Assembly (NCBI GenBank): GCA_021613535.1 | Contig: CP075492.1 | Location: forward strand, 14,643,205 to 14,707,204 | Length of the DNA: 64,000 nucleotides | From: Adineta vaga | Lineage: Eukaryota > Animalia > Rotifera | Direction: 5' to 3' | In this document: one piece after another, positions 8,780 through 60,020 of the stretch | Layout of the letters: each line of letters starts with the position of its first letter | Position numbering within the stretch: position 1 is the first letter of the stretch | Program-made: the position numbers and the translations under genes | Notes under the pieces: generated by a model | The model's input: the letters and a program-made list of their open reading frames with translations, nothing else | Databases searched by the model: none | Told to the model about the DNA's origin: nothing

Positions 8780-10525
8780 ATGCCTTCATTAACAGAATCA
8801 GATAATTATTGGGAAACGGCAACAGATGATATTCGAGCGCAAATTATTACGACGTCAAATACAAACTCTAGACGAAATATATTTCAACGCATGATTGATT
8901 CATTTAAACGTGTACCTTCATCTAAAAATATTTCGATTCCAATGACGGAAACTGATAGAAGAGATGACCAAAACGATGAAGTCGAAAAAGGAGAAAGTGG
9001 TTTGCATCGAGCACTGAAAAATCGACATTTGCAGATGATTGCCATAGGCGGATCAATTGGTACTGGTCTTTTTGTTGGATCAGGTTTAGCACTAGCATCG
9101 AGCGGTCCTGGTGCACTTGTTCTTGATTTTGCCATCATTGGTTTTATGCTTTTCAATGTATGTATGGCATTGGGAGAGCTTAGTGTCGTTTTTCCTGTGT
9201 CTGGCTCATTTGCTGCTCATAGTACACGTTTTCTTGATCCTGCATGGGGATTTGCTATGGGATGGAATTATGCTCTCGGCTGGTTAATTATTATGCCTCT
9301 TGAATTAACAGCTGCTGGACTTGTAATTAACTATTGGACGACGTCGATAAATGTTGCAGTATGGATCACCATTTTTTTAATTGCACTTTTGATTATCAAT
9401 TTATTTGGTGTACGTGGATATGGCGAAATTGAATTCGTTATATCCCTCATTAAAGTAATTGCTGTCATTGGATTCATTATTCTCGGTATTATTCTAGTTT
9501 TCGGAGGTGGACCAAATCATGAATATTTAGGAGGGAAATATTGGCAGAATCCAGGTGCATTTGCCAATGGTTTCAAAGGTATATGTTCGACTTTTGTAGT
9601 GGCTGCTTTTGCTTTTGGAGGTACAGAACTAGTTGGCTTAGCTGCAGCCGAAACAGATAATCCTCGAAAGACTATTCCACGAGCCACAAAACAAGTCTTC
9701 TGGAGAATAATGATATTCTATATTGTATCATTAACACTTATCGGTTGTTTAGTACCTTATACATCTCGACGTCTTTTGAGTGGAACTTCGGCTTATGACG
9801 CGTCAGCATCACCTTTCGTTATTGCTATTGAAGATGCAGGCATCAAAGTTCTACCTTCGATATTCAATGCCATGATACTTTGTGCTGTACTTTCAGTTGG
9901 TAACTCGTCTGTTTATGGTGCATCTCGAACTTTATGTGCACTTGCTGAAAATGGTCAAGCACCAAACATATTCGCTTATATCGATCGTAAAGGTCGTCCA
10001 CTTTCTGCGGTCGCCTTATCGATGCTCTTGGGTTTCATAGCTTATATCAATTGTGCAGAAGTAGGTTCACAAGTATTTCATTGGTTACTAGCACTTGCTG
10101 GTTTGTCATCATTTTTTACTTGGAGTTCTATATGTGCATGTCATATCATGTTTCGAATAGCATGGAAAGCGCAAGGTCACACACTGGATGAACTGACGTT
10201 TGTAGCACCTTTTGGTATTTGGGGAAGCTGTATTGGTCTTTTGCTCAACATTCTATGTCTTATTGCTCAATTTTATCTAGCTATTTTTCCATTAGACTCT
10301 CCTCCAAGTGCAGAACGGTTTTTTCAAGCATATCTTGCTGCTCCCGTTATTCTTCTCTTATATGTAACATGGAAATTGTGGAAGAGATCACCATTTATGC
10401 GACCGAACACCATCGATCTGACTACTGGAAGACGTTTGCTCGACTCCCAACAGCTTATCGATGAAGAAAAAGCAGAACGTATGACTCGGCCTAGATGGAA
10501 AAGAATATATTACACACTATGCTAA
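8780..10525 (+). CDS. Amino acid permease, APC superfamily, yeast/bacterial AAP type, single exon
   Basis: 581 aa ORF with about 12 TM helices. The hallmark motif NRHLQMIAIGGSIGTGLFVGSG matches fungal Gap1-like and bacterial AroP/LysP permeases. ATG at 8780, TAA stop. Confidence 0.85.
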   Translation: MPSLTESDNYWETATDDIRAQIITTSNTNSRRNIFQRMIDSFKRVPSSKNISIPMTETDRRDDQNDEVEKGESGLHRALKNRHLQMIAIGGSIGTGLFVGSGLALASSGPGALVLDFAIIGFMLFNVCMALGELSVVFPVSGSFAAHSTRFLDPAWGFAMGWNYALGWLIIMPLELTAAGLVINYWTTSINVAVWITIFLIALLIINLFGVRGYGEIEFVISLIKVIAVIGFIILGIILVFGGGPNHEYLGGKYWQNPGAFANGFKGICSTFVVAAFAFGGTELVGLAAAETDNPRKTIPRATKQVFWRIMIFYIVSLTLIGCLVPYTSRRLLSGTSAYDASASPFVIAIEDAGIKVLPSIFNAMILCAVLSVGNSSVYGASRTLCALAENGQAPNIFAYIDRKGRPLSAVALSMLLGFIAYINCAEVGSQVFHWLLALAGLSSFFTWSSICACHIMFRIAWKAQGHTLDELTFVAPFGIWGSCIGLLLNILCLIAQFYLAIFPLDSPPSAERFFQAYLAAPVILLLYVTWKLWKRSPFMRPNTIDLTTGRRLLDSQQLIDEEKAERMTRPRWKRIYYTLC

Positions 10526-21127: not shown

Positions 21128-22569
21128 ACCATTATTATTCAAAATATTTAATAACACTAATAACCAATAAAGATGACGCACGTACTTGGTTTTTTTCTGA
21201 AAATTAATATAAACTCCTCCCTAGATTAAAAGACTCGAGGTCTTCTAATGTGATATTCGATAGAAAAAAGAACTAAATACTTCGAAATTTCTTCAATTTA
21301 TTAATTTTCATCAAAACAAAAACAAAATTGTAGAAATATATATAAATATAAAATAAATGCGAAAACGTCGGATTTTATCCGAAAGTTATGTGTACTGCAA
21401 AAAGTGTATAGGGTAGAAGATATAGAAAAATATCGATGTTTTTCTAAGAACTCGGCAATGGCTCGTTCAACCAGGCTCATCTTTGAACTTCACCGAGATA
21501 TTGATGTGACAATACTTGATAGAAAATCTCATCATAATTGGAAACAACTTTAATAGAATCATTATCGTCACCGGAATCATTTGTTGAATTATCTGAATTG
21601 AGATAGTTCACCAAAGACATTTATTTTAATCTATCTGTTCGAAATGCGTCGTTTATACAGTCGTTCTTCTACCAATAGAGACAACGAAAGAATTATTGTC
21701 TACTTTTCTTTCTTTTCTGTTAGATATACAAACAATTTGATTATAGGCACTTGTTTTACAGTCCAAGTAATCCATATATGTAAGGATAAAAAAGAAAAAG
21801 AACTCTCTCGACTGATCAAAAGTTCGCTGTATATACTTTGTATCACGTACGAATGAAAGAGAAGAATATTTCAGTGAATTTATTCATAGTATTCGTCGAA
21901 ATGATTTTATAAAAGGGGTCTTCTAATACAGCTTTTAAACTTATTGTCGAAAAGGGTCTTTTAATTTGAGGAGGGGTTTATGGCAATTTTAGATATAAGC
22001 AGTGGTAGGAACATTGATACAACTAGGCTTTGCTTTACTTCTTCTTCATGTCATATATCGTATTATTTTTATGAAAAGTCTAGGTTTATGCACTCGTCGA
22101 TAAGAGAAGAACGAAAGATCGTAAAAGAGAAAGATTATAAAGACAACATAAACTGCGAGAACAATGTAATCAAATAGAAAAGGTAGCAAAGGTAAAAGGT
22201 TAAAAACAATAGATAATATAGAAAGAAGTAAAAGTAGGACAAATATCATTACAATATGCTTCAATTCTATCTATAGTAAGTTGTACATATAACAAATGTG
22301 GATAGGAATGAGGGTAAAGGATGGATGCATATCCACACCACTTTAATATCAGTAAAGCTACTAAAGTTGAAGATATTATTTTTGTAAACAATTAAACGTA
22401 TTCTATTCGATGATATTTAAACTATACACTTGTTTCGCGATGCGCACCATGTCGTACTTTAGTTACGCATGTGCCGTACTTTTTCTTTTTCTTTACGTAA
22501 TAGATTTTGTCGTCGGTAGAGAAAGTATATAAAGGCCTTGTTTTCTTTTTCTTTCTGATCATTATTAAC

Positions 22570-23542
22570 ATGTCGTCAAGTAAAGAACGTGTGTTTGTCA
22601 CTGGAGCAAGTGGAGGCATTGGTAGTGGTGTCGTTCGTGGTCTTGTTAAAAAAGGAATTGATACAACTGCATACGTAAGAAGCGAAGAAAAAGCAAAAGA
22701 ACTATTCAAAGATGAGCTTAAGAGTGGTCACTTGAAGATTGCCGTTGGTACTTATTCAACTGTTGACGACTTTAAAGAAGCGATTCAAGGACATACACGT
22801 CTTTTTCTGCTATTTGCTGCTGTTCATAGTAAACCAGCCGATATGAGTGAAGTCAAAGGAACTCTTGCAAAGATCGCTTTCGAACAAGGTGTTCAACAAA
22901 TTGTTGATCTCTCTTCGGCTTTTGTTAGTACTTATGGTAGAAAAGGTATCATTGGATACATGCATACGACAGCGGAAGAAAAACTTTGGACACTAGCAGA
23001 TGAAAATCCTAACCAACGTTCTCTTGTTGTACTTCGTCCCGGATCGTTCACGAATAATCATCTTATGGCTGATGTTCATCATATAAAACATTCGAACAAA
23101 CTTGTTTCATGTGGATCGCCTTCATCAGTTACGACTTGGATTGATACAAGAGGTAAGACAAAACTAATGACTACTTTTAATGCATAGTTCTTTTTTGTTT
23201 GTAGATATTGCTGATTGTGCCGTAGCCGTTCTAAGTGAATCCATAGAAAAACATGATCGTAATATTTATGAACTTGGTGCCGAAGCTTTGAGTAATGAAC
23301 AACGAGCAGCTATTTTCACAAAAGTCCTTGGTAAACCGATTAATTATGAACAACAATCATTTCAAGACTTCTACAAGGCAATGACTGGTTTAGGCATGCC
23401 ACATTCGATCGTTTATAATTTTACATTAATTGCTTCGAAAGATATTTGTGATTCTACAACTCCACAAATAGCCATTATCATCGGTCGACCATTGCACACA
23501 CTTGAAGAATGGATAACTGACAATATCAAAGAATTTCAATAA
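22570..23542 (+). CDS. NmrA-like NAD(P)-binding protein (atypical SDR), 2 exons
   Basis: Exons are join(22570..23152,23205..23542), with a GTAAGA donor at 23153 and a 52 nt intron. It carries the Rossmann motif VFVTGASGGIGSGVVRGL, and NmrA-like conservation continues across the splice (WIDTR|DIADCAVAVL). Confidence 0.75.
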
Positions 23543-31057: not shown

Positions 31058-31898
31058 TTATTTCTCGTCAGTTTTTGACACCAAAAAATTACGGCTAAGT
31101 AGGCAATGTGGAACAAAGAAGCTACTATCCTTCCGGATATCATTGAGATAAGTAAAATGTTCATCGGGTCCTAAGATAACTAATTCGGGTCCAAAAACAA
31201 TTCTTGATTGTTTATTTTTATAATCATAAATTTGAACAACTTCATTTTGTGGAACACAATACGTGACGACTTTCCATCGATCACGTTTTGTTGTTTTTGC
31301 ATTTGTATTATTGGAATTGATATATCGATTAACTAATATATCTGCTTGAAGGAATCCTTCAATTTGTAATGGCAAATCTTTTTCCCATAATTCTTCATGT
31401 TCTGTCAGTAAATAAGTGTTGCCAATAATTGCTCGAACACGACCTGTTTTCGTATCACGTACATAGATACCTTCATTTTCGTCTAGATCATAGAAAAGAG
31501 AATATTAGACATATTTAATAATCTAAAGAGGCGTAATCTACCTAATGGTATCGCTTTTCTTCGTAATAACACTTCAACTTGTGTCGGAGGAATATATTCG
31601 CGTGGTCCTCGAAGAAGCCATCGATCACCTTCAATGACAAAAAATTAATCATTGAAATCAAACATATATTTACGAATTTACCTGCCATCCGTGTTACTTT
31701 ATCAATATCATCTTCAAATGATTCTGTACATCGAAGAATAAGACCTTCATCTTCTTCCAAGATATATATTTCTTGAATACCTTTTTCTAATTGTTCATTC
31801 GGTTGTAAGAAGAAGGATTTTTCACCGATAATTAACTTCTTCTTTCCTAATTGATTCTTTCCATCAACTTCAATAAAAAAATCATTATTATATAACAA

Positions 31899-31934
<36 letters not shown>

Positions 31935-32945
31935 TACCTCCAACTGGATTTAATATGACACAATATTGTCTCGAATTTAAGACTGTAATATCAATAGTCT
32001 TAATAAGTTCTTCATAGACATTTAAAATATGTGTTTCTGTTTGTTCGGATGTGATTAACCATTCATCTCCATTATTTCGTGTTTGACTAAAATCATCTGT
32101 AAATGTATTCAACGCACGTAAATGCAATGCTCTTTTATTCGTTAAGATAAAAGCATCTTCAACATTAACAACTGTTTCATGTGCCAATGGTGTATAAGCA
32201 CCTGGTTTTTTCACTAACCACTGTTCACCTGTTACACGACGCTGACCAAGACGATCGATAAGTTCTTTTTTCGCACTTAATTTTATTGCTTGATTTGGAC
32301 CTATAATCGTTGCATTGATCTGTTCTTCAATCGTTACTTCTTTACGTGGAATATAAGTACCTTAAAAATATACAAACAAGTTTTCAATCGTTTATTGTAT
32401 AGATAATAATAATGATCTACCTGGTCCTTCGAACAACCATTCATCACCTGCTTTTCGTTGTTCACTATGATCATCAAAATCAAGAATAGCTTTTAATCGT
32501 AAAGCTGAATTAGCTGCAACATATTTCAATGGTGTGACCGGCTAGAATGTGATCATTTTCAAAAAGTTTATCTTCTCAATAATAGACATAAACATACTTG
32601 TTTTAAAACTTCACCAGGATATAAAGGAAACGGTTCTTGATAATCATCATGCAATCGAATATTTACATTCGCATGTGATAATTTAATTTGTCCATTTTTA
32701 TCAAATTCGACTTGTCCTATTTGATTTTTAATCACAGGATTTTCCACAATACAATAATGTCTCGGTGGTATTGTAATCATTTTTTCTGGCCCAAAACAAA
32801 TCGTTTCATTATCTTGTTTGAAAAATATCTTCGGTCCAATTTCTAAACGTGTTACACTTATATTCTGATCTAATACATGAATATAATAAAATGGTGGAAT
32901 ACGATAAATAGGACCAGTTTGGGATGAGATATTTTTCGATGACAT
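31058..32945 (-). CDS. MVP: Major vault protein, repeat-domain-only (C-terminally truncated) copy, 6 exons
   Basis: Exons are complement(join(31058..31482,31542..31628,31682..31867,31938..32360,32421..32541,32598..32945)), about 529 aa. There is strong MVP identity: [110 protein letters not shown]. The frame ends at TAA after [15 protein letters not shown], where vertebrate MVP continues into the shoulder and cap-helix domains. Confidence 0.8.
31903..31930. repeat. (TA)n microsatellite inside MVP intron
   Basis: About 14 TA units. Shorter (TA)n runs also occur near 7717-7736 and 8573-8588. Confidence 0.9.
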
Positions 32946-33195: not shown

Positions 33196-34128
33196 TTATC
33201 CATTAAGTTCACCGGTTAAAATCCATCTAGTTCCTTCTTCATCTAATTCTTCTCTTGCTCGCTGTAGATATATCTCACTGTCTTCATCTGTTAATATTCC
33301 TTTCCAACGATCATTCGTTCCTTGACAAAAAAATGACTTAGCGCCACCTAAAAACTGTTCTTTTTCTACCATTTTATCTGCATTTGTTTTCATATAATTA
33401 AATGAACAATGTTCTAAAATATCATTCCATCGTAAAGGATCAATATCAATATTAAGAAATGTTGCAATTCGTTTGATTTCATTTGGTAAATCTTTTTTTA
33501 ATTGATAATAATGAACTAAAAGTATATTTGGTAAATGACGCATATTCCACCAAGATTTTATATATGTGAAAAATGATGTTTCCGATTGAGCAACAATATT
33601 TGATTCAAAAAGTTCATTGACAGAGTTCGGTTTGACAACACCTTCGGAAGTACCATTTATACGATGATTATAAATACTACATGCAACATCACGTCCGTCA
33701 CGAGCAACAAAAATATATTTGGCTTTCGATGAGAAGAGAAGTGCATCAAATGGTAAATGACTTTTAATAAATCGTCGATGAGTTTGTTGTTCTAAAATTT
33801 CGAGAACTTTCTCATTCGAACCATATTTGTCTTTATTGAAACGAAAATCAAGCCATGGTGAAACATCCTTTACATTGATAGACTCACTGCCATTGAATAT
33901 TAATTGACCAACGATTTGTTGCATCCATGTTGTACCACATTTTGGAAATGTGTCGATAATAATATCATTATCACGATATTGAAAATGATTCCATAGTTTG
34001 GAATCAAACCAAAAATTTTCAAGTTCGATTTTTTTCCTTGGATATAAAGTGTAGATGTCAGACATTGTTCTCTTGTTAACGAAATGAAAAAGAATAGTTG
34101 TTGTTTTAAAGATTTCAAAAGGTAACAT
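33196..34128 (-). CDS. Cytosolic sulfotransferase (SULT family), single exon
   Basis: It has the PAPS-binding 5'-PSB motif TFPKCGTTWMQQIV, the 3'-PB region RDGRDVACS, and SULT-like C-terminal conservation. The ATG is at 34128; an alternative start (MSD) lies 21 codons in. Confidence 0.85.
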   Translation of the reverse strand: MLPFEIFKTTTILFHFVNKRTMSDIYTLYPRKKIELENFWFDSKLWNHFQYRDNDIIIDTFPKCGTTWMQQIVGQLIFNGSESINVKDVSPWLDFRFNKDKYGSNEKVLEILEQQTHRRFIKSHLPFDALLFSSKAKYIFVARDGRDVACSIYNHRINGTSEGVVKPNSVNELFESNIVAQSETSFFTYIKSWWNMRHLPNILLVHYYQLKKDLPNEIKRIATFLNIDIDPLRWNDILEHCSFNYMKTNADKMVEKEQFLGGAKSFFCQGTNDRWKGILTDEDSEIYLQRAREELDEEGTRWILTGELNG

Positions 34129-35255: not shown

Positions 35256-36388
35256 ATGGCAAATCTTGAAAATAAGGACGACTTTTCCAATTCATCATCA
35301 TTGCTTGTTATATCAAATCCTCCAATCCTTGTATTTTTGTATCGGTATGGATTGAGTTTCATCTTTTTCTTAGGTTTTATCGGTAATCTAGCAAGTGTAG
35401 TAACATTTCTACAACCAACATTACGTGTTACTTCGACTAGTTGTCTTTTCTTGATTTTGGCGATACTTGATACGATCTTTTTAATCGTATCGATTTTTGA
35501 TTATGTTGAAGTTGGTTTGATTGAAAAACCCATATTAATGAATATCTACGATGTTCTATGTCGATTTCGTTGGTTTTCAAAAGGATTTATACAATTTTGT
35601 TCGGCTTGGATTTTAGTACTCATTGCAATAGATCGTTGGTTACGAACACGATATCCATTCAAAGCAAATACATGGTGTATACATCGAAATGTTGCTATAG
35701 TTGTTTCATTTATTCTTATCATTGGCATTGTTTTAAATGGCCATATGTTAAGTGTTCAACTCTTCGGTAGTTTAATGCCAGGTATTGCAACATCAGCATG
35801 TGGACCTGCAAAGTCTTCTAGTTCATATGCTAATTTTTATCTTTCTCAATGGCCTTTTCTTCAAGTATGAGCGGAGAGTAATTTCATTCTCGGACATAAT
35901 TTATTTATTTATATTTTAGGTCGTTTTTATTTCGTTGATTCCTGTTTGTATCATGCTTTTCTGTAGTTTTGATATTTATCGAATCATTCAAAAGAACAAA
36001 ACTCGTATTCAACCGAATCAAACAAATCAACAAAAATTACATCGTCATGAACGTTTGAATCGGCAAATGTTAATCTTAATGACAACAAGTATTTTTATCT
36101 TTTTCATTACAACATTGCCTGTCAGTCTTCGACGAATTCTCGCTGCATATGAAATATTAATTGGAAAGGAGAATAAGATACAGCAAATTGTTATTGATAC
36201 CGGTATCCTTACGATATTATTAACATTCAATTATGCAGTAAGTACATCTAAAATACATTAAAAATAAGTTAATCTGATGACTTATAATTGAATAGATCAA
36301 CTTCTATATTCATTGTTTAACATCAAACTTATTTCGCAATGAATTTCTTCAATGTTTAAAATTCATCTTTCGAACCATGAAGTATTAG
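35256..36388 (+). CDS. Rhodopsin-like 7TM receptor (GPCR), 3 exons; paralog of 24362-25788
   Basis: Exons are join(35256..35864,35920..36237,36296..36388), with GTATGA and GTAAGT donors and introns of 55 and 58 nt. It has the DRY-like motif AIDRWLRTRYPF. The terminal exon encodes INFYIHCLTSNLFRNEFLQCLKF. Confidence 0.75.
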
Positions 36389-36826
36389 TGAACAATAGTA
36401 CAACTGGAAATCCTCGTACTTGAATGACGGCTAATAAGAATGAACTTTCTTCTTGTAGAACGCTTGATTGCAAAGCAGTTCACACGTAAGTTTCAATAGA
36501 ACATGAAACAAATCAAACAGTGCTGTGTGTATCTATTTAAATAAAGAGAGAATACATCTTTGAATATTTATCGAGTTCGTATACTTGTATTGATAAACAA
36601 CCTATTCATCACATTTTACCTGCATATTTGATTGACAGAATAAATCATATTCGTCGTTTTATGAATAGATATCAATTCATTATCACAATGAAGCTTTCTT
36701 TCTTTTTCTACATACGCCATCCAAACATTCTATCTACTGAAATAAGTATAAAGAGACGAAGCACTCAATAATTACCAAGATTAAAGAGTAAACGATTGCA
36801 TTTTCAAATTGTATATTGCAACAGAC

Positions 36827-37945
36827 ATGATGATTTCTTCGTTTCTTGTCGTCTTCTTCTTCTTATTGAATCAATGTAGTTCATATCCGCAATTTGCTTT
36901 AAAGTTACAACCCGATGCATTACATCCTTTTCAAGAACCAGGCCCATTTGATATTCGTGGTCCATGTCCAGGTTTAAATACAGCTGCCAATCATGGTTAT
37001 ATTAGTCGTAATGGTATCACAACATTTGCAGAATTAGTTCAAATGCAGCAAGAGTTATATAATGTTGGTCTTGATTTAGCTCTTCTTTTAGCTACTATTG
37101 GTGTTGCTCTCGATGGTGATATCATTACAGGTAAATTATCGATTGGAAAAGAATCAACAGCTGTTCCAGGACTTCTACGTACACCAGGTGGATTAAATGC
37201 ACATAATAAATTTGAAGGTGATACTTCATTGACACGAAATGATTATTACTTAGCTAATGGAGATAATTTCAAATTTAACGGAACTTTATACGGAATGATG
37301 TTTGCTGAAGCACAAAATAATGGTGGCTTATATAATTGGAAAACAATGGCTGACTATCGTTATAAACGTTATCAACAATCATTAGCAGAAAATGGACAGT
37401 TTCTTTTTCCTCCCCAAGCTATTTTACTTTATGGAGCTGCAACATTTCTTTATGAGTTATTTCCAAATGGAACAGATAAATTACCTACAGAAACGGTGAT
37501 TTCGTCTTTTTTTGGTGCAAAACAAACAGAAAATGGAAAATGGGAAGCAGTATCGGAAAAAATTCCTTCAAATTGGTATAGAAGAGAAACACCATTTACT
37601 TTAGTTGATATTGCTATTCAAGTATTAAAACTGTATTTAGAACATATAGCTTTATTTGGAGGTAATACTGGTCGACCGAATTCATTTATTCTTGATCCTT
37701 TCCAATTAACATTGGATAAACAAAATATTAATGGAATTTTGTGTCTTCTATATCAAACAGTTTTATCTGTTGTACCATCACAAGTAGAAACACTGATTAC
37801 TTCACCTGTAGCTATACTCAATTTTTTAATAGCAAAGTTAGATCCAATATTTGGTGTACAATTTGGATGTCCATCGACTAGTTTTGATCAAGCAGTACCT
37901 ACACCATTAGAAAATATTGTCAAAAAAACAATTCTTCGTCGTTAA
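36827..37945 (+). CDS. Heme-thiolate peroxidase / unspecific peroxygenase (chloroperoxidase-like, fungal type), secreted, single exon
   Basis: A signal peptide is followed by the diagnostic PCP motif, RGPCPGLNTAANHGYISRNG (Cys codon 36965-36967), with acidic residues downstream (EHD region). It is intronless, and the first ATG is at 36827. Confidence 0.85.
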   Translation: MMISSFLVVFFFLLNQCSSYPQFALKLQPDALHPFQEPGPFDIRGPCPGLNTAANHGYISRNGITTFAELVQMQQELYNVGLDLALLLATIGVALDGDIITGKLSIGKESTAVPGLLRTPGGLNAHNKFEGDTSLTRNDYYLANGDNFKFNGTLYGMMFAEAQNNGGLYNWKTMADYRYKRYQQSLAENGQFLFPPQAILLYGAATFLYELFPNGTDKLPTETVISSFFGAKQTENGKWEAVSEKIPSNWYRRETPFTLVDIAIQVLKLYLEHIALFGGNTGRPNSFILDPFQLTLDKQNINGILCLLYQTVLSVVPSQVETLITSPVAILNFLIAKLDPIFGVQFGCPSTSFDQAVPTPLENIVKKTILRR

Positions 37946-38658
37946 TTTCAATGACATAACTGACATTGAAACTACAGTAGAATTTTTCTTAATCATTGCT
38001 TTCAAATAAATCTTTCTTTTTAAAACTTCACTCATACTCTCAAGTTAGTTGTTGCTAGTTGAAATGAAACATTTAAGTCACTGAGAAATGACAGTTTCAT
38101 CGCAATCGAATGATGGTTCGAGCAAATCTAAAGCAGCTGTTCCAGCAAATGTCACATAGTATCAATTTTAGTGCTCTTGCCAATTCATCGTAACGTAATA
38201 TGCATGTTCATACCCATACTATGAGATAGCTGTACTATGCCACTTGGCAGATTATTTGCAATCCATCGATAGGCAATAATAAAAATTTGATCTGTACTAC
38301 TGAAACTAAACATTACATCGGTACTAGTTCACGCATTTCTCGTCATCAGTATAACAATGATGCGAATAAAACGAAATGTTTTATCACAGTATTCGTTAAC
38401 TTGCGTTATCTGTTTACGACATATTGTATATATAGTTGGCTTGTATCAAGATTTTAAGTTTATTATAACATGAAAAAACGACCAAGAACGCTCGTAAAAT
38501 ATATCGATATAAGGTATGTCTGAGTACGAATATTCTTTACTTCTATATACAAGATTTATCTCCCTGTTTTGTTATCAGATCGAAAACGTTTGTCTTGAAA
38601 GATTGTTGTAAGAAAAGAAAGAAACGGATCATTTTCACTTTATCTATTAACAAAGAGA

Positions 38659-40098: not shown

Positions 40099-41611
40099 AT
40101 GACGACGAAAAATAATAAAATGCATTGTTTCAATTGTGGCAAAGAACGAGCCATATCCAAATGTACTGGATGTTTAAAAGATTATTGTTATTTTCATTTA
40201 ACTGCACATCGACGAGAATTAGATCGACAATTTGATCATATCGAACGAAATCGTGATATATTCAAACAGGATCTTAATGAACAAATACATCATTATAATC
40301 AAGATTTTCTTATGAAACAAATCAATCAATGGGAGGAAGATTCAATAAAACTAATACAACAAGTAGCTGATGAATGTCGAAATATTTTAATACATCATCG
40401 ACAACAATATTATGAAAAAATCAAATTAAATCTAAAAACTTTCACTGAACAAGTAAGCGAGATTCGACAAACACATGATTTTAATGAAATTGATTTAAAT
40501 CGATTTAAAGACAAATTTAAACAAATTCAACAACAACTTCATCCACCAATGAATCTTTCTCTTCAACATGAATCATGCATACCACTTGTACACAAAATTT
40601 CTCTTGTTATATCATCTGGTAAGACAAATACATTGAGTTTTATTGAGTCTATTGTTTGTTTTTTTCTTCTATTCAGGACAATCTATTTCCCCAAAGAATA
40701 TTGATAATAATACGAAATGGAAACAAAATGGAATAACAATTGCTGGTGGAAATGATGGAGATCATCAAATGAATCAACTTTGTTTTCCTCAAGGAATTTG
40801 TATTGATTATGATAATGATGATTTAATCTATATAGCTGATTATGAAAATCATCGTATTATTGAATGGAAATGTGGAGAAGCTCATGGAGAAACGATTGCT
40901 GGTGGAAATGGACGAGGATATCGTATTGATCAATTGAATAGTCCAACAGATGTGATTATTGATCGTAGAACAGATTCATTAATTATTTCGGATGCAGGAA
41001 ATCGACGGATAGTTCAATGGTCTCGTCTTAATCGAACATATTTACAAACACTTGTCTCTGATATCGATTGTATTGGTGTAACAATAGATAATCATGGAGA
41101 TTTGTATGTATCAGATTATATGAAGAATGAAGTTAAACGTTGGAAACAAGGTGAAATATGTGGAATAGTCGTTGCTGGTGGCCATGGAAAAGGAGATGCA
41201 CTAAATCAATTGAGTTGTGCAACTCATATTTTTGTTGATGATGATTATTCTGTGTATATTTCGGATTGTAATAATAATCGTGTCATGAAATGGATAAAAG
41301 ATGCTCAAGAAGGTATTATTGTTGCTGGAGGACATGGATTAGGAGATGATTTAAATCAAATATGTCTTCCTCAAGGATTAGTTATTGATCATTTGGGAAA
41401 TCTTTATGTTGCAGATTCATTAAATCATCGAATTATGAGATGGTTAAAAGATGCAGAAGAAGGTTCGATAATTCTTGGTGGAAATGGAGAAGGAAATGAA
41501 ATGAATCAATTCAATTGTACTGTAAGTTTAGTATTTGATCGACATGGAAATCTCTTTATTGTTGATTATAATAATCATCGAGTACAAAAATTTGATATTG
41601 AATCGAACTAA
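40099..41611 (+). CDS. B-box zinc finger / coiled-coil / NHL-repeat protein (TRIM-NHL-like without RING), 2 exons
   Basis: Exons are join(40099..40618,40677..41611), with a GTAAGA donor and a 58 nt intron. The B-box is CFNCGKERAISKCTGCLKDYCYFHLTAH, followed by a coiled coil and six NHL blades (NHRIIEW, NRRIVQW, NNRVMKW, NHRIMRW, NHRVQKF). Confidence 0.8.
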
Positions 41612-42225: not shown

Positions 42226-45200
42226 ATGGCTTTAGATACAGAACAAAATAAGAATTCAATCGCAGATTTGAATAGTACTACTAGCGAAAAAGAAATGACG
42301 ATGCTTGAGACTACGTATGTTTTACTTTCTTATAATTAATTTCACTTATAATTTGTACGACAAACTTTTCATAGAAATTTTGATGATAGATTAGGAACGA
42401 AATTCACCCTCGTAGCTATTTTAACATCCTGTGTATTCTGTGGCATTGCCATGTTTATTGGTATTCTCGTCATTTGTCTAACTACTTCCGAAAAACCAAG
42501 TAATTCATCTTTTTTTCAACTCCTTTTCTGGACATTTAGTAATAATATATTTACTTCTTTAGTACCAAAATGTACTTTAAATTTTGCTCCAACAATGACG
42601 AATCCAATTGAATACAATTATCGTCCACGATCTGTTGCCGTCGGTGATTTCAATCAGGATAATATATTGGATCTTGCTGTTGCTAATTCAGCTGTTGACA
42701 CTATTGTTATTTTCCTTCGACATGAAAATGGTAGTATAGAAAGTCCAATCACTGTTTCAGATGAATCTAATTCTATTCCATATATGCTCGCGGTTAATGA
42801 CTTGAATAACGACAATCGATTAGATATTGCAGTAGCAAACTATGGTACACATAGTATAGGTATTTTCTTCGGACTTGGAAACGGATCCTTTGAGAATTTT
42901 ACAATACTTTCTACGGGTACATCACGTCCTATTTCAATTCTTATAAATGATTTCAATAACGATACATTACTGGATATTGTTACTGTTAATTACGGTACCG
43001 ATAGTATAAACATCTATTTTGGGTACGGAAATGGTACCTTCTCATCACCTGTCACATACTGGCTAGGTTACGATTCTTTGCCATATGCAGTTGCAGCAGA
43101 AGATTTTAATAATGACACACAAATCGATTTAGTTATTGCTAATCATGGTACTAATAGTATCGTTATAATCTTTGGAGATATGAACGGCAATTTCATTAAA
43201 AGAACAACAATTTCTACAGGCTTGAATTCGCATCCCTATTCGATTGCAGTTAGCGATTTAGATAATAACAATTTGTTGGATATTGTCGTTGCTAATTATG
43301 GTACGAACAGTATAGGTATATTTCTTAACTATGGAAATGGATTCTTTTCAAAACAAAATACATATTCATTGGGTACTGCTTCACCATGTTGCATTAGTAT
43401 TGGTGATTTGAATAATGATCATCAAATGGATATTATTGTTACTAATCAAGGTGTTGATAATGTTGCTGTTTTTATTGGCTATGGTAATGGTACTTTTACA
43501 GATCCAAAAATGTATTCAACTGGTTCATTATCTACAATCTCACTTGCTACAGGTCATTTTAATAGTGATAATCGATTAGATATTGTAATCGTTAATAATG
43601 ATACGAATAGTATAAATATTCTATTTGGTTATTATGATGCGTTTCCAATTCAGCAGAAGTTTTCAGCGGGTCCTTCATCGTATTCAATAGATGTGGGTGA
43701 TTTTGATAACAACAATGAACTAGATTTTGTGACTAGTGATCAATTTGATGGAACGATACGCGTCTTCTTAGGACAAGGTGATGGTTCTTTTATACAGAAA
43801 ATCACTAAACTATTCAACTATTATCTGTTTTCTTTGTCTGTTGGTCATTTTAATAACGATGGAAGATTGGATATTGTCGTCACTGATTCTTTCGATAATC
43901 AAGTAACGATCCTTCTTGGACTTGGTGATGGATATTTTGAAGAGCCAAAGAAATATTCCGTTGGTAATGCTCCGTTCTTTCTAACTGTCAGTGATTTAAA
44001 TAAGGATACATATATGGATATAATTATCGCTAATGTGAATAGCAATGATATAACTGTACTTTACGGCTATGGCAATGGTTCTTTCAGAAATGACACCAGA
44101 TATAAAATGGGATCAGTACCGCAATCGGTAGTTGTTAATGATTTCAATAATGATACTCATCTAGATTTAGTCATTGTTAATGGTGGTAACGAAAGTGTGA
44201 GCATTCTACTTGGTTATAGCAACGGTACTTTTTCTGAAGAAACACGATACTCTGTTGGTTCTAATCCGTATAATGGAGCTGTTGGTGATTTTAACAATGA
44301 TAAACGACTAGATATTGTTGTTTGTAATGCAGGTAGTAACGATATAAGTATCTTACTTGGAAATGGTGATGGTTCTTTTCTGAAACAAATGAATTATGCA
44401 ACTGGTGATAGTCCTCGATCTTTAGCTATTGCTGATGTCAATAACGATGCTCGACAGGATATTATCGTTGTTAATACTGATGGTAATACAGTAGGTATTT
44501 ATCTTGGATATGGTAATGGTTCTTTTGAAAATCCCATGATCTACTTGCCTGGTTCTATGCCGCGATGTGTAGCTGTCGGCGATTTTAATTATGACGGTCG
44601 AATAGATATCGTAGTTGGTAATCTAAACGATAATCTAGTAACAGTATTATTTGGTTACGATCGTGGAGCTCTGGAAAACAGAGTAGCTTTCGCATCGGGT
44701 GAAGCTTCACGTTTACAATATGCTGCTGCGGGTTATTTCAATGATGATACATGGCTTGATCTTATTGTTGCTAATTATGGTACTAATGATATAGGTATTA
44801 TGTTCGGTCATGGAAATGGTACATTTGAACGTCAACTATTAATTCCAACAGGTTTAAACTCTGCTCCCAAATCAATCGCTATTCAAGATTTTAATAATGA
44901 CGGTCAACTAGATATTGCAGTAGCGAATTATGGTACTAATAATTTAGCTATGCTACTTGGTGATGGAAAAGGAATGTTTACAAATCAAGCAAATTATGAC
45001 AATAATATGAAGTATCCTCCAGCAACTATTATTGCTGCTGATTTCAACAATAATAAACGATCTGAAATTGTAGTCACATATGATAATACGGACAATATAG
45101 ATATATTTATTTCGTATGATACAGGAACTTTTATTTACGACAATTCTTATACAGTTGGTGTGCTTCCACAATATGCCGCTATTGGTGATTTTAATAATGA

Positions 45201-46758
45201 TATGCAACCCGATATTGTTGTTACTAATATGTGGGATGGTACGATCAGTATACTTCTCGGTTACAAAAACGGTACTTTTGCGAAACAAACTATATATTCA
45301 AGTGATTGGTATCCAATTTTTGTCGTTATAAATGATATCAATCAGGATACTATATTAGATATTATCGTTGTTAGTCGAGTTAAGGATACGGTAAATATTT
45401 TTCTCGGCAATGGAAACGGTACTTTTAGAAATCCAATTAAATATTCAACTGGTAGTGTACCATACTACATTGATGTTGGAGATTTCAATAACGATACATA
45501 TATAGACATTGTTACCAGCAATGCAAATAGTAATGATATGAGTATCTTATTAAATTATGGTAATGGTTCATTCAAAGATCAAATCAAATACACAACTGGT
45601 TCTCATCCTCAATCTATAATTGTCAGTGACATTAATAATGATCGACAACTCGATATCATTGTTGTCAATGAATTTGATAATGATCTCAGCATTTTTCTCG
45701 GTCATGGTAATGGATCTTTTCGAGAACAAATTCGATATTCAACTGGTACTAATCCAGTCTCACTTGTTATTGGTGATGTAAATAATGATACAAAATTAGA
45801 TATTGTTGTTTCTAATAGTGTTACTCATGATATAAGTGTTCTTATTGGATATGGTAATGGATCTTTTCAAAATCAAACAAGATATTCAACTGGTTCTCGT
45901 CCAGGATCATTAAGTATTGGTGATTTCAATAATGATACATTCCTCGATATTATCGTCACTCATTCAATTGCTAATAGTATAAGTGTTTTTATCGGATATG
46001 GTAATGGCATTTTTGCATATCGAATTACATATTCAACGAATGCAGGTCCGAATTCTGTTGTTTTTGCAGATTTTAATAACGATCATCGAATAGATATTGC
46101 TATTGTTTGTAGTGGTTCATCTAAAATTGACGTACTCTTTGGAGATATCAGTCAGTCATTTGTAAAAAAGACAACATTGATTAATGATAATGGATCTCGA
46201 CCGAGATCACTAGTTGCAGGTGATTTTAATCATGACAATCAACTAGATATTGCAGTTGCAAATTCAGGTACTAATAATGTGGGTATCTTTTGGGGTCATG
46301 GAGATATTTCATTTACAAATCAATATATCATTTCAAGTAATTATTCTCCATGGTCTATAACTGTTGGTCATTTGAATAATGACACTCTATTAGATCTTGT
46401 CGTTGCCAATTATCATAACGATAGTATTGGTATATTTTTTGCATCTACAAATAACTCCTTTTCTACACAATACATATTTATAACGGGTTCGAAATCGAAA
46501 CCATATGCAACTGTTGTTGCGGATTTTAATAATGATAATAGACAAGACATTATTGTCGCCAATTATGGCAGTAATGATGTAGGTATTTTTCTTGGTGATG
46601 GTAGTGGTTCATTTGCAAGTATAATGATTATTCCCGTTGGTTACGGAACTCTTCCGTTTTCTATCATCGTTGGTTATTTTGATAATGATCCTAAATTGGA
46701 TTTTGCTGTTATCAATGAAGGCACTGATAATCTAAGAATTTTCTTACAAACATGTTAG
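42226..46758 (+). CDS. Giant FG-GAP/VCBS-repeat beta-propeller protein, predicted type II membrane protein (~1.46k aa), 2 exons
   Basis: Exons are join(42226..42314,42375..46758), with a GTATGT donor and a 60 nt intron. It has a short N-terminal cytoplasmic segment, a TM (FTLVAILTSCVFCGIAMFIGILVI), and about 28-29 tandem repeats of roughly 48 aa (DFNNDxxLDIVVANYGTNSIGILLGYGNGTF...Y..G..P), consistent with four 7-bladed propellers. Confidence 0.75.
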
Positions 46759-48432: not shown

Positions 48433-50003
48433 TTAGTGATGTAAAAGAATACTAATGCTATTCGAATAGAAATTTGCAACAATAATGTCTAGTTTATTGT
48501 CATTATTCACATCAGTTAATGTTATTGCAACAGGACCATTACCAACTGAGTAAATATATTGAGAAGAAAAACTGCCATTGCCAAGATTGAAAAGTACACC
48601 AACATTATTTGAACCATAGTTTGCAACAACAATGTCCAGTGTATAATCGTCATTCAGATCAGCTAACGCTACTGCGATTGGACCACTACTAACCGAATAG
48701 GTTCTTGAGTATTGAAATGAACCGCTGCCTATGTTCAATAATATTCCAATAGTATTCGAACCATAGTTTGCAACAATAATATCAGATTTATTATCACCAT
48801 CTACATCAGTTACTATAACTGCTCGTGGATTGTTTCCAACTGAATACATAGTCGAAGGATAAAATGTACCGTTGCCTTTGTTAAGAAGAATACCGATATT
48901 GTTTGAATAATAATTTGCAACAATAATATCGGGTTTATTATCATTATTAACGTCGCTTGTTGTGATTGAGATTGGATTGAGAAAAACTGGATATGAAGTT
49001 TCAGTAGAAAATGTCGCATTACCCATGTTCAGAAGAACGCAAACTGTGTTCGAATTGTAATTTGCTACAATGATATCGAGTTTGTTGTCACCATTCACAT
49101 CAGTTACTGTAACTGATCTTGGATAGGATACAATTGTATAAATGATCTGAGAAGAAAACGTGCCATTACCGGTGTTAAGAAGAATACAAATATTGTTTGG
49201 AACTGGACTTGCGATGACAATATCGACTTTATCATCACCGTTCATGTCGCCTACGACAGCTGTCATTGGATTAGTACTAGTTAAGTAGGTAATTTGATTC
49301 CGAAACGAACCATCACCTAAATTAGTAAGAACACCAATGTTATTGGAACCGTAATTAGCGACAATAATATCGGATTTGTTATGATTGTTTAAATCGATTA
49401 CTGCGACTGAATACGGTTCATAACCAACTTGATAAGACACTTGAGGGAGAAACATATCACTATTGTTATACACTAAAGAAATATCAGGAAAAACAAGTAA
49501 TATTCTTCTGTATTTCGAAACTTGTTGGTATGAACATAACGTGCAAGACTTACCAGTTGCTATCGTCGTTGCTATTGATGTTGACGAAGTTGACATGAAT
49601 TGATCTGTATTAGAGAAGTAATAGTAACAATAAACAACGTCGCTCGACACAAACAAGAGAGAAATAGATAGCTAATCGTTGCGATTATTTTCAGTAAAAA
49701 CTTACTTGATACTATTGATATTGATGATTGATTACTAAAGATATATGTGGCGTCGACATGAAATTCGATGACAATTGAATGATTCTTCAAAGAAAACAAT
49801 TGACATGTTTTATTCATTGAAAAATAATTTAATGCAAATATGAATTTATTTGATGCTCTAGCCATTTGACATATACATTCCTCTTTTGTTAGATTAACAA
49901 ATGACATATTTATATAATCGACCATTATATTATTCTCTATTTTACCGATAGATATCGATTGACTAGCAGAAAATAACGATAGAAGTAATAATATCCAAAA
50001 CAT
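48433..50003 (-). CDS. Secreted single-propeller FG-GAP/VCBS-repeat protein with N-terminal Cys-containing domain, 3 exons
   Basis: Exons are complement(join(48433..49472,49554..49604,49706..50003)), with GTAAGT donors and introns of 81 and 101 nt. It has the signal peptide MFWILLLLSLFSASQS, a roughly 80 aa domain with 4 Cys, a S/T linker, and 7 FG-GAP-like blades (DxNxDxKxDIIVANYGSNxIGIL). Confidence 0.7.
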
Positions 50004-51724: not shown

Positions 51725-52888
51725 ATGATGCAAACAGAGAATGTGTTTATTATTGCTGGAGCAGGCATTGGAGGTTTAGCAACTGCTTTAGCATTGCAAC
51801 AGAATGGATTTTCGTATGAAATTTATGAACGTGACATAGATTTTAATTCTCGTCGACAAGGTTATAGTTTAACTATTCAAAAGAATGGATTTGCAGCATT
51901 GAAAGAACTTGGTTTAGGTGATTGTGTACGAGAGATGGGTGCAGATTCTGTAATCGCAGGAACAGCTACATACAACAATTTGGGTGAAGTGATCTTTTCT
52001 AAATCTAAACGAAATAGGGATCGATATAATTTCAATAATTTTGCAGTACCACGACAATCTCTTCGTACATGTCTAATGAATGAATTAAAACCAAATGTTA
52101 TTCATTGGAATAAAGAAATTATTCGATATGAATCGTTACAAAATAATTCTCATCAAATTCGAGTTATCTTCTCGGATAATACATCCGTTGTTGGTCGTGC
52201 ATTGATTGGCTGCGATGGAGTTCGTAGTACAATTCGTAAACAAATGTTAGGTGATGATTTGAATTATCTTGGTGTATGGGCGATTAATGGTATTTCATCT
52301 CATCAACAGAATCCACTTCTTGTCAATAAAACTGTTCAGATGCTTGATGGAAAATCTCGTTTATTTATTAAACCATATTCTCTTCATAAATCTATGTGGC
52401 AATTGACTTTTCAAGTTTCGAAAGATGATCAAACTTACAATCAAAATGATTTAGAAGATTTATTAAATAAAGCAAGACATACTACGAAAGATTGGTATGA
52501 ATCAATTACAAAATTAATTCATGACACGTCAGTTTCAGATATTCGTGCTGGTCCAGTTTTTGATCGAGATCCATTGGAAATTATTCGCAAAGACGTCGAA
52601 TGTGTGACAATGTTAGGTGATGCTGTACATCCTATGAGTCCTTTTAAAGGACAAGGAGCGAATCAGGCATTGACGGATGCAGTTAATTTAGTAAAATTTA
52701 TAATGAAATATCAAGAAGAGAATGATGGCGTCGAAAAAGCTTTTCATGATTTTGAAAATGAAATGCTCATACGTTCAAAACGTTCTGTTTTACAATCAAG
52801 ATCAGCGGTAAAATTTCTTCATACTAACAATGCTCTTCTAAACACAAATATGTCTCAATTTATCAGTGGTAAACTTGTATTCGAATAA
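51725..52888 (+). CDS. FAD-dependent aromatic-ring monooxygenase (salicylate hydroxylase-like), single exon
   Basis: It has an N-terminal GxGxxG FAD fold (FIIAGAGIGGLATALAL) and the C-terminal FAD motif GDAVHPMSPFKGQGANQALTDAVNL. ATG at 51725, TAA stop. Confidence 0.85.
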   Translation: MMQTENVFIIAGAGIGGLATALALQQNGFSYEIYERDIDFNSRRQGYSLTIQKNGFAALKELGLGDCVREMGADSVIAGTATYNNLGEVIFSKSKRNRDRYNFNNFAVPRQSLRTCLMNELKPNVIHWNKEIIRYESLQNNSHQIRVIFSDNTSVVGRALIGCDGVRSTIRKQMLGDDLNYLGVWAINGISSHQQNPLLVNKTVQMLDGKSRLFIKPYSLHKSMWQLTFQVSKDDQTYNQNDLEDLLNKARHTTKDWYESITKLIHDTSVSDIRAGPVFDRDPLEIIRKDVECVTMLGDAVHPMSPFKGQGANQALTDAVNLVKFIMKYQEENDGVEKAFHDFENEMLIRSKRSVLQSRSAVKFLHTNNALLNTNMSQFISGKLVFE

Positions 52889-57609: not shown

Positions 57610-60020
57610 CTATTTCGAGTCTTGTTCTAGACGATTGATATTTGCGAGTTGTTCATCAATTTCCTTGGCTTGTTTCTCCCAGTTCATATCTTCATAGAGT
57701 TTTTTGGCTGCTGTCAAGTTTATACGAGCTGCTTCGAAATCACGTAAGCCAAGTTGAAGATCAGCTAGCTGTATGTGACTTTGAATCACAATGTTCTTTT
57801 TATCTTCGATCTCTTGCAAGTCGTGAAATGGAAGTATCTCATTGCTCTGTACCGTTGCATGATGTTTCAAAAGTCGATACTTCAATGCTGATGAAAGATC
57901 TTTGAGATTGTCTTTGTAGATGTTGGATATACGTTGATAAATGCGAGACAAATCTTCATGATTGTTCTGAGCGACGTAGATCTTACAGATTTCTTTGTAG
58001 TTTATCAGAGCCTCATCAAATATCTCCATCTCTTCCTGAAGCTCAGCAATATTCTTGTAGCATTTGCCCAATTGTCTATCGATAGGTGAGCAAAATTTTA
58101 AAAGAGCTTGAAGTCGAAGTTGTTCGTAGTGTAGAGCAGATTTTTTGTCTTCCTTTTTATCATTTATCTCTTCCTTTTCTAAGTAAACCGTCGATAAGAT
58201 CTGATATAACACTGCTTTTTGTCTTTCATTATCTGGTAACTGATTCAGAGTGGTTTTACAGATTAATATTGCAGCATCATATTGTTCCTGAGCCGACTTG
58301 TCGTCCTCGAAATGAAAGTAATGCAGGCGACCTATTTTCAGATGAAGATTGGCAATTTCGAAACCATTGTTCTCAGGATATCTTTGCCAGATTGTAAGCG
58401 CTTGTTTGTAGTATGTCAATGCTGCTTTGTAATTTTCCCGACCATATCCCTCTTGATATCCACCCAATGCTCTGTATCTCTCGGCCTCCAGTTGTTCTCC
58501 CTCCGAAGTAAATAATTCATTGAGTTCATCGAAAATAGTGTTAATCTCCTCTTCTGGAGCATCTTTGCACACTTTTCCAGCAATGATACTAACACACTCT
58601 TTCAGACTAATTTTTCTGTTCTCGAACGGCAGAATATAATCATCTTCCAATGTCAGCATCACCTTGATAATCTTTTCATCTTCACTGTAACTACTGCTCC
58701 GAAGACGAAGAAATGTTCCCATCATGAGAAGTATTTCTTTCTCGTTGGAGAATTCACTCAAATGAGAAATATCTCCGAAAGGTTTAGAGTTGTATCTGGC
58801 GTTTAGATTAATTTCTAGCAGCACCCGGACGTAACCTTCCATCACTGAGGATATAGGCGGAAGAAAACTGAGCGATAGACGCCGATCAAGCGATGTCGAC
58901 AGAAAACTGGTTAACCTCACCATATAGGCAGACTTTAATGTTTCGACTTCATCCTCAGACATGATCTGTCCTCGAAACACTTGCACTTGTACGTTGTCTA
59001 CGTTGGTGGTTTTGAATGTTTCGTGTTCCTTTTTTAATTGGAGAAATAAATCTTTAATGTAGTAGCCGAATGCAAACATTACTCTGACGTTGTACTGTCG
59101 ATTAGCTTTGTTGATCAAGCGAAAAAAGAAGGTATCCCGTGTATACCACCAAACAGCCTTATCAGGAGTATACTCACGCTCGAACTCATCGATAACACGC
59201 AGTTCTCCAACTTTTCCATCGTAATAATTTCGTAGTTCAGTAGTGAGACGCTGGTGGCATACTTCTCTTGGATAAGGTAAGTGGCAGAGAGCATCCATAA
59301 ATATTACCCACCATGAAGCAGAACCAGATTCTGTTGTTCTATCTTGTTTGTCGAAGTTACCAAATACACCATCCTTCTCTTTTTCCAGATATCTCTTTAC
59401 GTCACTATCGACTGCCTGAAGTAAGGATTTGTGATTCGTGTACACTTTCTTAACCTGCAGTAAAAAAGTGTCTTGCGTCGCAGAAAAAAACTAAGTTTAA
59501 ATCTTACCTTTGTGTACGAACTCGGCCAGCTTTGAAGATGTTCACTATTCTGAGAGTAGACAAAAATTGAACGAATGTTTTGCAAGTGATGAATTTCTGG
59601 AATTAACTGCTTGCCGATGTTGTCTGAACAGACTAGAAAACACACGACATATTGTGACTCTTGTAGATAATGTTTACAGGAGTCTTGATTGTCAAAGAAC
59701 TTGGTGTAGTCGACAATTTCACGTAATTTGGAGATGGTCAGGTCTCCATTTAAGCCATCGTGAACATGGTTATCGCACCAGACTAACTGATGTGACTCAA
59801 GATTGAGTCGTTCACGGTCGAAAAGGCGAGATCGTATAGGGGAATTTCCTTGAATTGTATTATCGGCCGATATCATGGAAGATTGTGATGATCCAACGAA
59901 TGTGTTCATATTTTTTGTAGCCGTTAAATTTCGTCTTCTCAATAGTTTTAACTTTAGTTTGTCTCCATGGCTCGAGAAACATAACATTACTGTTCTGTGT
60001 ATGTGCTGCTTTTTTTTCAT
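57610..60020 (-). CDS. Multidomain protein: unknown alpha/beta N-domain + R-S-ExE mono-ADP-ribosyltransferase (toxin-like ART) + TPR repeat array, 2 exons
   Basis: Exons are complement(join(57610..59454,59508..60020)), with a GTAAGA donor and a 53 nt intron. The ART motifs in order are VQVFRGQ (Arg codon 58972-58974), FLSTSLD (58891-58899), and NEKEILLMMG (ExE at 58735-58743). They are followed by about 350 aa of TPR-like helical repeats (e.g. YKAALTYYKQALTIW, LGKCYKNIAELQ). The alternative start is MNTFVG at 59909. Confidence 0.75.

Follow-up and report, generated by a model that had tools for sequence, protein, structure and literature searches.

Does an animal chromosome carry a working gene of the unspecific peroxygenase (UPO) type that was taken over from a fungus, and would the product of such a gene still act as a peroxygenase? 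This question is raised by a gene at positions 36827..37945 (+) of a 64,000-nucleotide stretch of the genome of the bdelloid rotifer Adineta vaga (assembly GCA_021613535.1, contig CP075492.1, positions 14,643,205 to 14,707,204 of the forward strand), which is called the window in the following. An earlier note, made by a model from the sequence letters alone, had described the gene as a fungal-type heme-thiolate peroxygenase and as a candidate for horizontal acquisition. The gene is intact in A. vaga. According to our analysis, it was quite probably transferred from a fungus and then kept, and its product would be a heme-thiolate protein, predicted to be secreted, which has the long-UPO fold and may use peroxide in a non-canonical way.

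The open reading frame (ORF) covers positions 36809..37945 (+), and the ATG at 36827 starts a coding sequence of 372 amino acids which is terminated by a TAA at 37943-37945. Over residues 1-372, its product is 100% identical to the protein annotated in A. vaga as I4U23_015590 (P0001, ‘hypothetical protein’, encoded on a 20.35-Mb contig), which maps to the window as a single block. The intronless gene proposed in the earlier note was thereby confirmed with exactly its ATG-to-TAA coordinates; a paralog is absent from the rest of the 64-kb window. The hydrophobic N-terminus MMISSFLVVFFFLLNQCSSY, encoded by 36827..36886 (+), is a probable secretion signal. Its Kyte-Doolittle means, calculated over 10-residue windows, are 2.0-3.0 across the first 8 windows, a hydropathy result which is consistent with a signal peptide. 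Such a short hydrophobic N-terminus is common to the bdelloid homologs, which lack an N-terminal extension of about 60 amino acids found in the fungal proteins. Sequence matches to a possible core promoter element (TATAAA, 36747..36752 (+)) and to a possible polyadenylation signal (AATAAA, 38005..38010 (+)) are located 80 nt 5′ of the ATG and 60 nt 3′ of the stop codon, respectively.

The assignment to the fungal-type heme-thiolate family was borne out by comparisons of sequence and of predicted structure. The protein matches the Pfam family PF01328 (Peroxidase_2) with E = 2.5e-52; the score of 178.5 bits exceeds the cut-off of 26.9, and the match extends over positions 1-185 of the 186 in the model. 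HMMER comparisons with proteins of solved structure gave E values of 7e-41 to 2e-37 for long UPO sequences matched to the 372-residue protein, and weaker matches for short UPOs and chloroperoxidase. An AlphaFold2 model was built from a 40-sequence alignment (mean predicted local distance difference test score (pLDDT) 75.5, predicted template modelling score (pTM) 0.76) and compared with known structures by Foldseek. The most similar structures were those of PabUPO-II and AaeUPO (template modelling (TM) score 0.68-0.78, probability 1.0). UPOs and chloroperoxidase account for each of the 33 significant matches in the PDB.

Residues of the predicted active site were compared among homologs retrieved from 5.8 billion proteins, of which the best 120 of 662 matches and 150 of 1593 representatives at 50% identity were inspected. 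The stretch RGPCPGLNTAANHGYISRNG spans residues 44-63 and includes the motif P46-C47-P48 (36962..36970 (+)), which corresponds to P35-C36-P37 of AaeUPO and is invariant in 120/120 homologs; by homology, Cys47 is predicted to ligate the heme iron as the proximal thiolate. The alignment further identified E130-G131-D132-T-S134 (37214..37228 (+)) as the counterpart of the EGD-S site of AaeUPO (E122/G123/D124/S126), so that E130, D132 and S134 would form the site for a cation (Mg2+) and a heme propionate. The E, D and S of this site are likewise invariant in 120/120 homologs, with G, A or S between the E and the D. Cys306 (37742..37744 (+)) and Cys348 (37868..37870 (+)), kept in 118/120 and 115/120 homologs, are equivalent to Cys278 and Cys319 of AaeUPO and would be the first and the second half of a C-terminal disulfide. 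Phe129 and Phe207 retain F121 and F199 of AaeUPO, and the positions of F69, F76 and F191 are occupied by Val, Leu and Ile.

A different result was obtained for the distal helix. The acid-base pair Arg189/Glu196 is listed as essential for family II UPOs (PMC8293615, PMC6417270), and PCP together with EGD-S-R-E is treated as essential for long UPOs (PMC8293615). The corresponding segment Q197-AILLYG-A204 (37415..37438 (+)) was located by HMMER alignments to 9rfy and 7pn4 and by three MAFFT alignments. The position of Glu196, the acid-base residue of AaeUPO, is occupied by Ala204 in the HMMER and all three MAFFT alignments, and that of its partner Arg189 by Gln197 in two MAFFT alignments and by Ala198 in the third. 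Arg, Lys and His are all absent from residues 190-204, and the aligned segment also lacks Asp and Glu. Alanine is found at the Glu196 position in all rotifer sequences and in 119/120 of the closest homologs, none of which (0/120) has an Arg at the 189 position; the rotifer sequences all have Gln there. Even among 98 diverse full-length representatives, for which the alignment is less certain, the Arg...Glu pair is present in only 9, most of the others having Ala, Thr or Gly. Glu210 of the YELF motif was considered as a substitute acid-base residue and rejected: it lies six residues past the Glu196 position, off the helix face, and is replaced by Gln or Arg in several members.

Judged by these comparisons, the A. 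vaga gene product belongs to the heme-thiolate peroxidase superfamily and has the long-UPO fold, but lacks two defining UPO features. The earlier note had taken the PCP motif as the hallmark of a peroxygenase. The motif and the superfamily withstood the comparison, but PCP is diagnostic for the superfamily and not for peroxygenase activity, and as the Arg189/Glu196 pair is replaced by Gln197/Ala204, the protein is not demonstrably a peroxygenase.

Might the protein nevertheless be a canonical unspecific peroxygenase (EC 1.11.2.1), which reacts with H2O2 to Compound I and hydroxylates or epoxidises many substrates as AaeUPO does? Its family and fold are those of UPOs, it has PCP, EGD-S, the Phe121/Phe199 equivalents, the disulfide cysteines and a predicted secretion signal, and its fungal relatives carry automatically assigned names such as ‘aromatic peroxygenase’. 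We consider this explanation unlikely, because the two residues regarded as essential (PMC6417270, PMC8293615) are Gln and Ala here, with no charged residue in the aligned segment, and Glu210 is no conserved replacement. Motif-based mining for UPOs deliberately leaves out sequences of this kind; the main genome-mining study discarded ‘UPO-like’ sequences without the motifs (PMC6417270). A textbook H2O2-driven UPO would therefore not be expected from this gene.

We thus favour a heme-thiolate protein that handles peroxide in another way. Its distal pocket would be hydrophobic and would not provide the textbook activation of H2O2, as Gln197/Ala204 stand in place of the pair which splits H2O2 in characterised UPOs, a replacement which also holds for the fungal source subfamily as a whole. 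Heme-thiolate enzymes without a distal acid-base group are known to borrow one from the substrate, as CYP152 peroxygenases do, or to use organic hydroperoxides, as CYP74 and CYP8A do. Our best guess, which is unproven, is that peroxide activation is substrate-assisted or proceeds via organic or lipid hydroperoxides, and that the protein is an extracellular oxidative enzyme which acts on small hydrophobic compounds, either food-derived or toxic. Two points speak against this proposal. Loss of the Arg/Glu pair might simply mean weak or absent catalysis, and the mechanism is one that we infer, because the Glu-less subfamily has no characterised member. No partner gene, for instance a lipoxygenase or an oxidase producing H2O2, was common to the genomic neighbourhoods of three fungal subfamily members; short- or medium-chain dehydrogenases were found near some of these three, which is uninformative.

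The gene might also be a decaying relic or pseudogene which is still open in A. vaga by chance. In the A. ricciae ortholog (10001-11083), the two records L001 and L002 agree in having an in-frame TAA at codon 184, which is TCA (Ser) in A. vaga. The annotation bypasses this TAA by a spurious ‘intron’ of about 60 bp, which results in a 340-residue product without 20 conserved residues, and the A. ricciae ortholog is probably a recently inactivated copy. A second interrupted copy, L009 (353-1426; JGI metagenome 3300056851), is an AT-rich rotifer-type homolog with 73% identity and has a TGA at an invariant Trp, corresponding to W250 of A. vaga; its frame is open afterwards, and a 362-residue member exists in the same 90% cluster. 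Both stop codons count against a gene kept for its function, and the absence of the catalytic pair may be read in the same sense.

Evidence on the other side comes from the A. vaga copy itself, in which 372 codons are open and every superfamily-invariant residue is present, and from its relatives. The ratio of nonsynonymous to synonymous substitutions per site (dN/dS), determined by the Nei-Gojobori method, was 0.12 against A. ricciae and 0.17 and 0.23 against two metagenomic homologs, L004 and L005, over synonymous distances (dS) of 0.9-1.7. Among the 116 alignment columns that are at least 95% conserved in fungi, 86 have been kept by 6 or more of the 7 rotifer sequences, and fixed rotifer-specific changes were detected in only five of the 116. 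Several intact paralogs, including tandem duplicates, exist in A. steineri. Furthermore, the absence of Arg/Glu cannot be ascribed to decay after the transfer, because the fungal donor subfamily already lacks the pair. A relic is therefore decidedly unlikely. The family as a whole is maintained under purifying selection, but individual copies are sometimes lost. L009 was additionally considered as a possible transcript; owing to its genomic appearance and the in-frame TGA, it gives no support for expression.

The origin of the gene was deduced from its homologs. After A. vaga itself, the best 120 matches comprise A. ricciae (76% identity) and four A. steineri clusters (57-66%), followed by metagenome proteins. 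Named fungal matches start at P0010, show 45-54% identity over 84-89% of the length and belong mostly to Pezizomycotina. Every named non-rotifer match among the best 120 is a fungus, namely lichen-forming Lecanoromycetes, Dothideomycetes, Leotiomycetes and one Sordariomycete, in agreement with the horizontal acquisition suggested before. The named 50%-cluster representatives that were looked up were also fungi, including a basidiomycete and a chytrid, with the exception of Adineta fragments and one oak entry. The latter (P0237, POE72865.1, ‘aromatic peroxygenase [Quercus suber]’) matches only over residues 265-382 of its 389 amino acids and probably stems from contamination of the oak assembly by a fungus or from a chimeric gene model. 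No named animal other than Adineta was present among the homologs inspected, and no Rotaria homolog among the best 120 matches, though Rotaria proteomes are contained in the database, as seen for a neighbouring glycoside hydrolase of family GH5 and for an amino acid permease described below.

The metagenomic homologs L004 and L005 (ENA metagenome ERZ26165376) show 63-65% identity. The GC content of their contigs is 0.43-0.46, against 0.29-0.36 for the Adineta loci, and their neighbours include a 7tm_1 G protein-coupled receptor (GPCR), a eukaryotic RNA-dependent RNA polymerase, an ART+MORN protein and a malic enzyme. Their hosts are perhaps unsampled bdelloids or other micro-animals.

A first neighbour-joining (NJ) tree, calculated with a single outgroup and including the fragment P0063, had recovered bdelloid monophyly in only 25/60 bootstraps. 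The final tree was an NJ tree from Kimura distances with fragments removed, eight Arg/Glu-type long UPOs as the outgroup and 200 bootstraps. Here, the rotifer-type sequences, including L004 and L005, were monophyletic in 200/200 bootstraps. We conclude that these sequences point to a single acquisition from a fungus, a donor that can be placed only as far as a relative of Pezizomycotina. Some observations argue against so simple a history. The named Dikarya, nearly all of them Pezizomycotina, form the sister group of the rotifer clade, which is nested among them in only 2/200 bootstraps, by NJ only; P0022 and P0031 are the nearest outside sequences and branch near the rotifer clade; and, given the rows inspected, there may be more distant homologs in other animals. 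Faster evolution of the rotifer sequences could draw their clade towards the base of the tree. As for nesting within fungal UPO clades, which the earlier note had proposed to test, the named relatives of the gene are fungal, and the rotifers stand beside the named fungal clade in the NJ tree.

The position beside rather than inside the named Pezizomycotina is what would be expected if the gene had come down vertically from the ancestor of opisthokonts, with losses in almost every other animal lineage. The identity of about 50% to Pezizomycotina is too high for a split of more than 1 Gyr, considering that AaeUPO, which also comes from Dikarya, shows only about 31%. Besides Adineta, the inspected matches include no named animal, and the best 120 include no Rotaria sequence. 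In addition, UPO genes are reported to be missing from Holozoa, including Metazoa, and family II (long) UPOs to be restricted to Dikarya (2022 review, PMC8772875). Vertical inheritance is consequently very improbable, and there is good support for a horizontal transfer out of the fungi.

The gene is embedded among host genes. Upstream, a rhodopsin-family GPCR gene at 35256..36261 (+) consists of two exons (35256-35865 and 35921-36261) separated by a 55-bp GT-AG intron, and Pfam 7tm_1 matches both exons (model positions 1-144 and 164-242). It is preceded by a cytosolic-type sulfotransferase (33196..34128 (-); PF00685, E = 2e-49) and by exons of a major vault protein (31542..32945 (-); Pfam Vault_2 and Vault). 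Downstream, beyond the GH5 gene, lies a B-box/coiled-coil/NHL-repeat gene (40099..41611 (+); Pfam NHL, E = 2e-26). In the A. ricciae locus L002, the order is vault, guanylate cyclase, sulfotransferase, a small GPCR-like ORF, the homolog, and GH5 with NHL; the vault exons are 68-79% identical to those of the window, and the sulfotransferase ortholog (66.6% identity) adjoins the homolog. The A. steineri locus L008 has the order GPCR, homolog, GH5 and NHL gene, orthologs of the NHL gene thus being found downstream of the homolog in both species. In the A. steineri loci L006 and L007, the GPCR is again followed by the homolog, with a tandem duplicate in L007. The two L007 copies are located at 4723-5814 and 10001-11092, and a partial extra copy lies at 7515-7916 upstream of the L008 gene. 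Altogether, four 90%-identity clusters were found in A. steineri and one in A. vaga.

As this gene order recurs in A. steineri and, in part, in A. ricciae, the gene and GH5 were already adjacent at this locus in the common ancestor of the three Adineta species, which shows that the transfer is older than their divergence. The composition of the gene is also host-like: its GC content at third codon positions (GC3) is 0.137, compared with 0.12-0.30 in most flanking host ORFs and with 0.63 in a homolog of fungal type from metagenome contig L003, the overall GC of which is 0.55. The GC content at 36.5-38 kb is 0.31-0.33, within the range of 0.27-0.40 across the window, and no composition break was detected there in the window GC. 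The integration into the host chromosome claimed earlier therefore holds, with the GPCR, sulfotransferase, vault and NHL neighbours, the synteny in A. steineri and A. ricciae and the 20.35-Mb contig as its evidence. One part of the original argument has to be modified: the gene does lie between a GPCR and a GH5 gene which both contain an intron, but GH5 is weak evidence of a host context because it is itself foreign, of bacterial type. It is on the other four neighbours named and on the cross-species synteny that the host-context argument rests. A contaminant or an assembly chimera, that is, fungal DNA joined into a rotifer contig, would agree with the nearest named non-rotifer homologs (among the matches listed) all being fungi and with the frequent occurrence of fungi where rotifers live or are cultured, but its probability is negligible in view of the host-like GC of 0.33 and GC3, the identity of only about 50% to fungi, the length of the contig and the gene order in independent assemblies of three Adineta species, and such an origin is ruled out for practical purposes.

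The earlier note had further described the region as enriched in foreign-type metabolic genes, and this was upheld for the two neighbours tested. The secreted GH5-type glycoside hydrolase I4U23_015591 (PF00150; 38659..39818 (+)) has two exons and a GT-AG intron of about 48 bp; the annotated 369-residue protein P0299 maps to 38659-39144 and 39192-39815. Its homologs are found in Adineta and Rotaria, and then only in bacteria among the named matches (Chitinophagaceae, Acidobacteriaceae, Gemmataceae, Spirosoma). The intron was presumably gained after the transfer. The GH5 protein has a hydrophobic C-terminal tail, and the A. ricciae annotation fuses GH5 and the downstream B-box/NHL gene into one 822-residue product. 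The second neighbour is the intronless GAP1/YAT-type amino acid permease I4U23_015578 (581 amino acids; 8780..10525 (+)), which was characterised by homolog search. It belongs to a multicopy family across Adineta and Rotaria, which is thus bdelloid-wide, and its next relatives are GAP1-type permeases of Ascomycota with 58-60% identity. Among its fungal matches there is a tardigrade protein with 59% identity (Paramacrobiotus metropolitanus LOC129588863), which hints at a parallel acquisition of the permease in tardigrades. Judging from their homologs, three genes of the window look foreign, with donors of at least two kinds.

Further genes of the window were assigned by Pfam. They include an intronless FAD_binding_3 monooxygenase ORF of 387 amino acids (51725..52888 (+)) and an NmrA-like/NAD(P)-binding gene with apparently two exons (22507..23542 (+)), both counted as foreign-type in the earlier note and identified by Pfam only. 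An uninterrupted ORF of 1435 amino acids at 42451..46758 (+) contains 23 FG-GAP_3 (VCBS-like) repeats, and a relative of 407 amino acids is encoded at 48433..49656 (-). ORFs of 611 and 207 amino acids at 57610..60020 (-) match TPR_12 and, weakly, an ADP-ribosyltransferase exotoxin. The stretch which they occupy has the highest GC content in the window (GC 0.39, ORF GC3 0.39, against 0.12-0.30 in most other ORFs), and as a compositional outlier it could be a younger acquisition. An ORF with ELMO_ARM (armadillo-like) and TIR_2 matches at 12212..13039 (+) and an overlapping 487-residue ORF (10867-12330) are probably one gene. Five rhodopsin-family GPCR genes on the (+) strand are found within 50 kb (1409-2392, 5088-6152, 20102-21127, 35256-36261 and 50585-51472) and make up a dispersed local family interleaved with foreign-type genes.

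What does an acquired gene of this kind mean? Gene transfer into bdelloids is well known, and the present gene is therefore a new member of a known phenomenon: the picture of about 8% foreign genes in bdelloids remains unchanged. For peroxygenase research, the gene is a documented counterexample to the view that UPO-family genes are absent from animals (PMC8772875). The literature searched contained no paper linking the peroxygenase, chloroperoxidase or UPO family to bdelloids or to any animal; in databases, Adineta homologs are already automatically tagged as ‘heme haloperoxidase family profile domain-containing’. For rotifer biology, the gene adds one more predicted secreted oxidative enzyme to the foreign-gene repertoire, and it shows that two genes for secreted enzymes, one of fungal and one of bacterial type, have been neighbours from a time before the divergence of the Adineta species.

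The finding also draws attention to long-UPO-like proteins without Glu196, which constitute the majority of the diverse full-length representatives aligned and are discarded by motif mining (PMC6417270). That a gene of this kind has been preserved by purifying selection in its new host points to a useful role of the Glu-less proteins. We put forward, as a tentative proposal, that Adineta are the first animals known to carry and maintain a PF01328 gene, which would run counter to the reported absence of such genes from Holozoa, and that this gene comes from a large Glu-less branch with a possibly different chemistry. If this is true, substrate-assisted peroxide activation similar to CYP152 or a CYP74-like rearrangement of organic or lipid hydroperoxides would be the candidate chemistries, and the fact that purifying selection has preserved the gene in an animal would speak for activity of the Glu-less proteins.

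Among known systems, the closest characterised ones are AaeUPO from Agrocybe aegerita (PDB 2YOR, 5OXT) and PabUPO-II from Psathyrella aberdarensis (PDB 9HE6), with which the A. vaga protein shares the Pfam family, the fold and about 31% identity. With family II UPOs in general it has in common PCP, EGD-S, the Phe121/Phe199 equivalents, the C-terminal Cys pair, the predicted secretion and a similar length. It differs from them by Gln197/Ala204, by aliphatic residues at the positions of Phe69, Phe76 and Phe191 and by being encoded in an animal. Closer still are the Glu196-less proteins of Pezizomycotina annotated as ‘aromatic peroxygenase / heme haloperoxidase domain’, for example from Agyrium rufum, Sclerophora amabilis, Didymella, Mollisia scopiformis and Cercospora beticola. 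These proteins, at the 45-54% identity given above, likewise have the Cys pair and share the distal helix GAA[ST]FLYELFP with Ala at the Glu196 position. Some of their genes are likewise intronless, as in Mollisia with 1203 bp for 400 amino acids. Unlike the rotifer proteins, the fungal members possess a conserved N-terminal extension of about 60 residues (PGVDSS...KR...CPFN), and their GC3 is about 0.63 instead of 0.14.

Transfer of PF01328 genes out of fungi has a precedent in oomycetes, which acquired UPO genes from Ascomycota by horizontal transfer; those sequences belong to family I (short) (PMC8772875), whereas in the present case a metazoan has received a gene of the long type. Foreign genes amount to about 8.3% of the genes of A. 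vaga (PMC10809525). The gene described here resembles others of this class in its non-metazoan best matches, its integration among metazoan genes, its host-like composition and its conservation across species, as well as in adjoining a foreign gene from another donor. Comparable cases are reportedly the cellulolytic enzymes of A. ricciae, said by Szydlowski et al. in 2015 to derive from fungal and prokaryotic donors, and the trehalose-metabolism genes which Hespeels et al. are said to have counted among bdelloid foreign genes in the same year.

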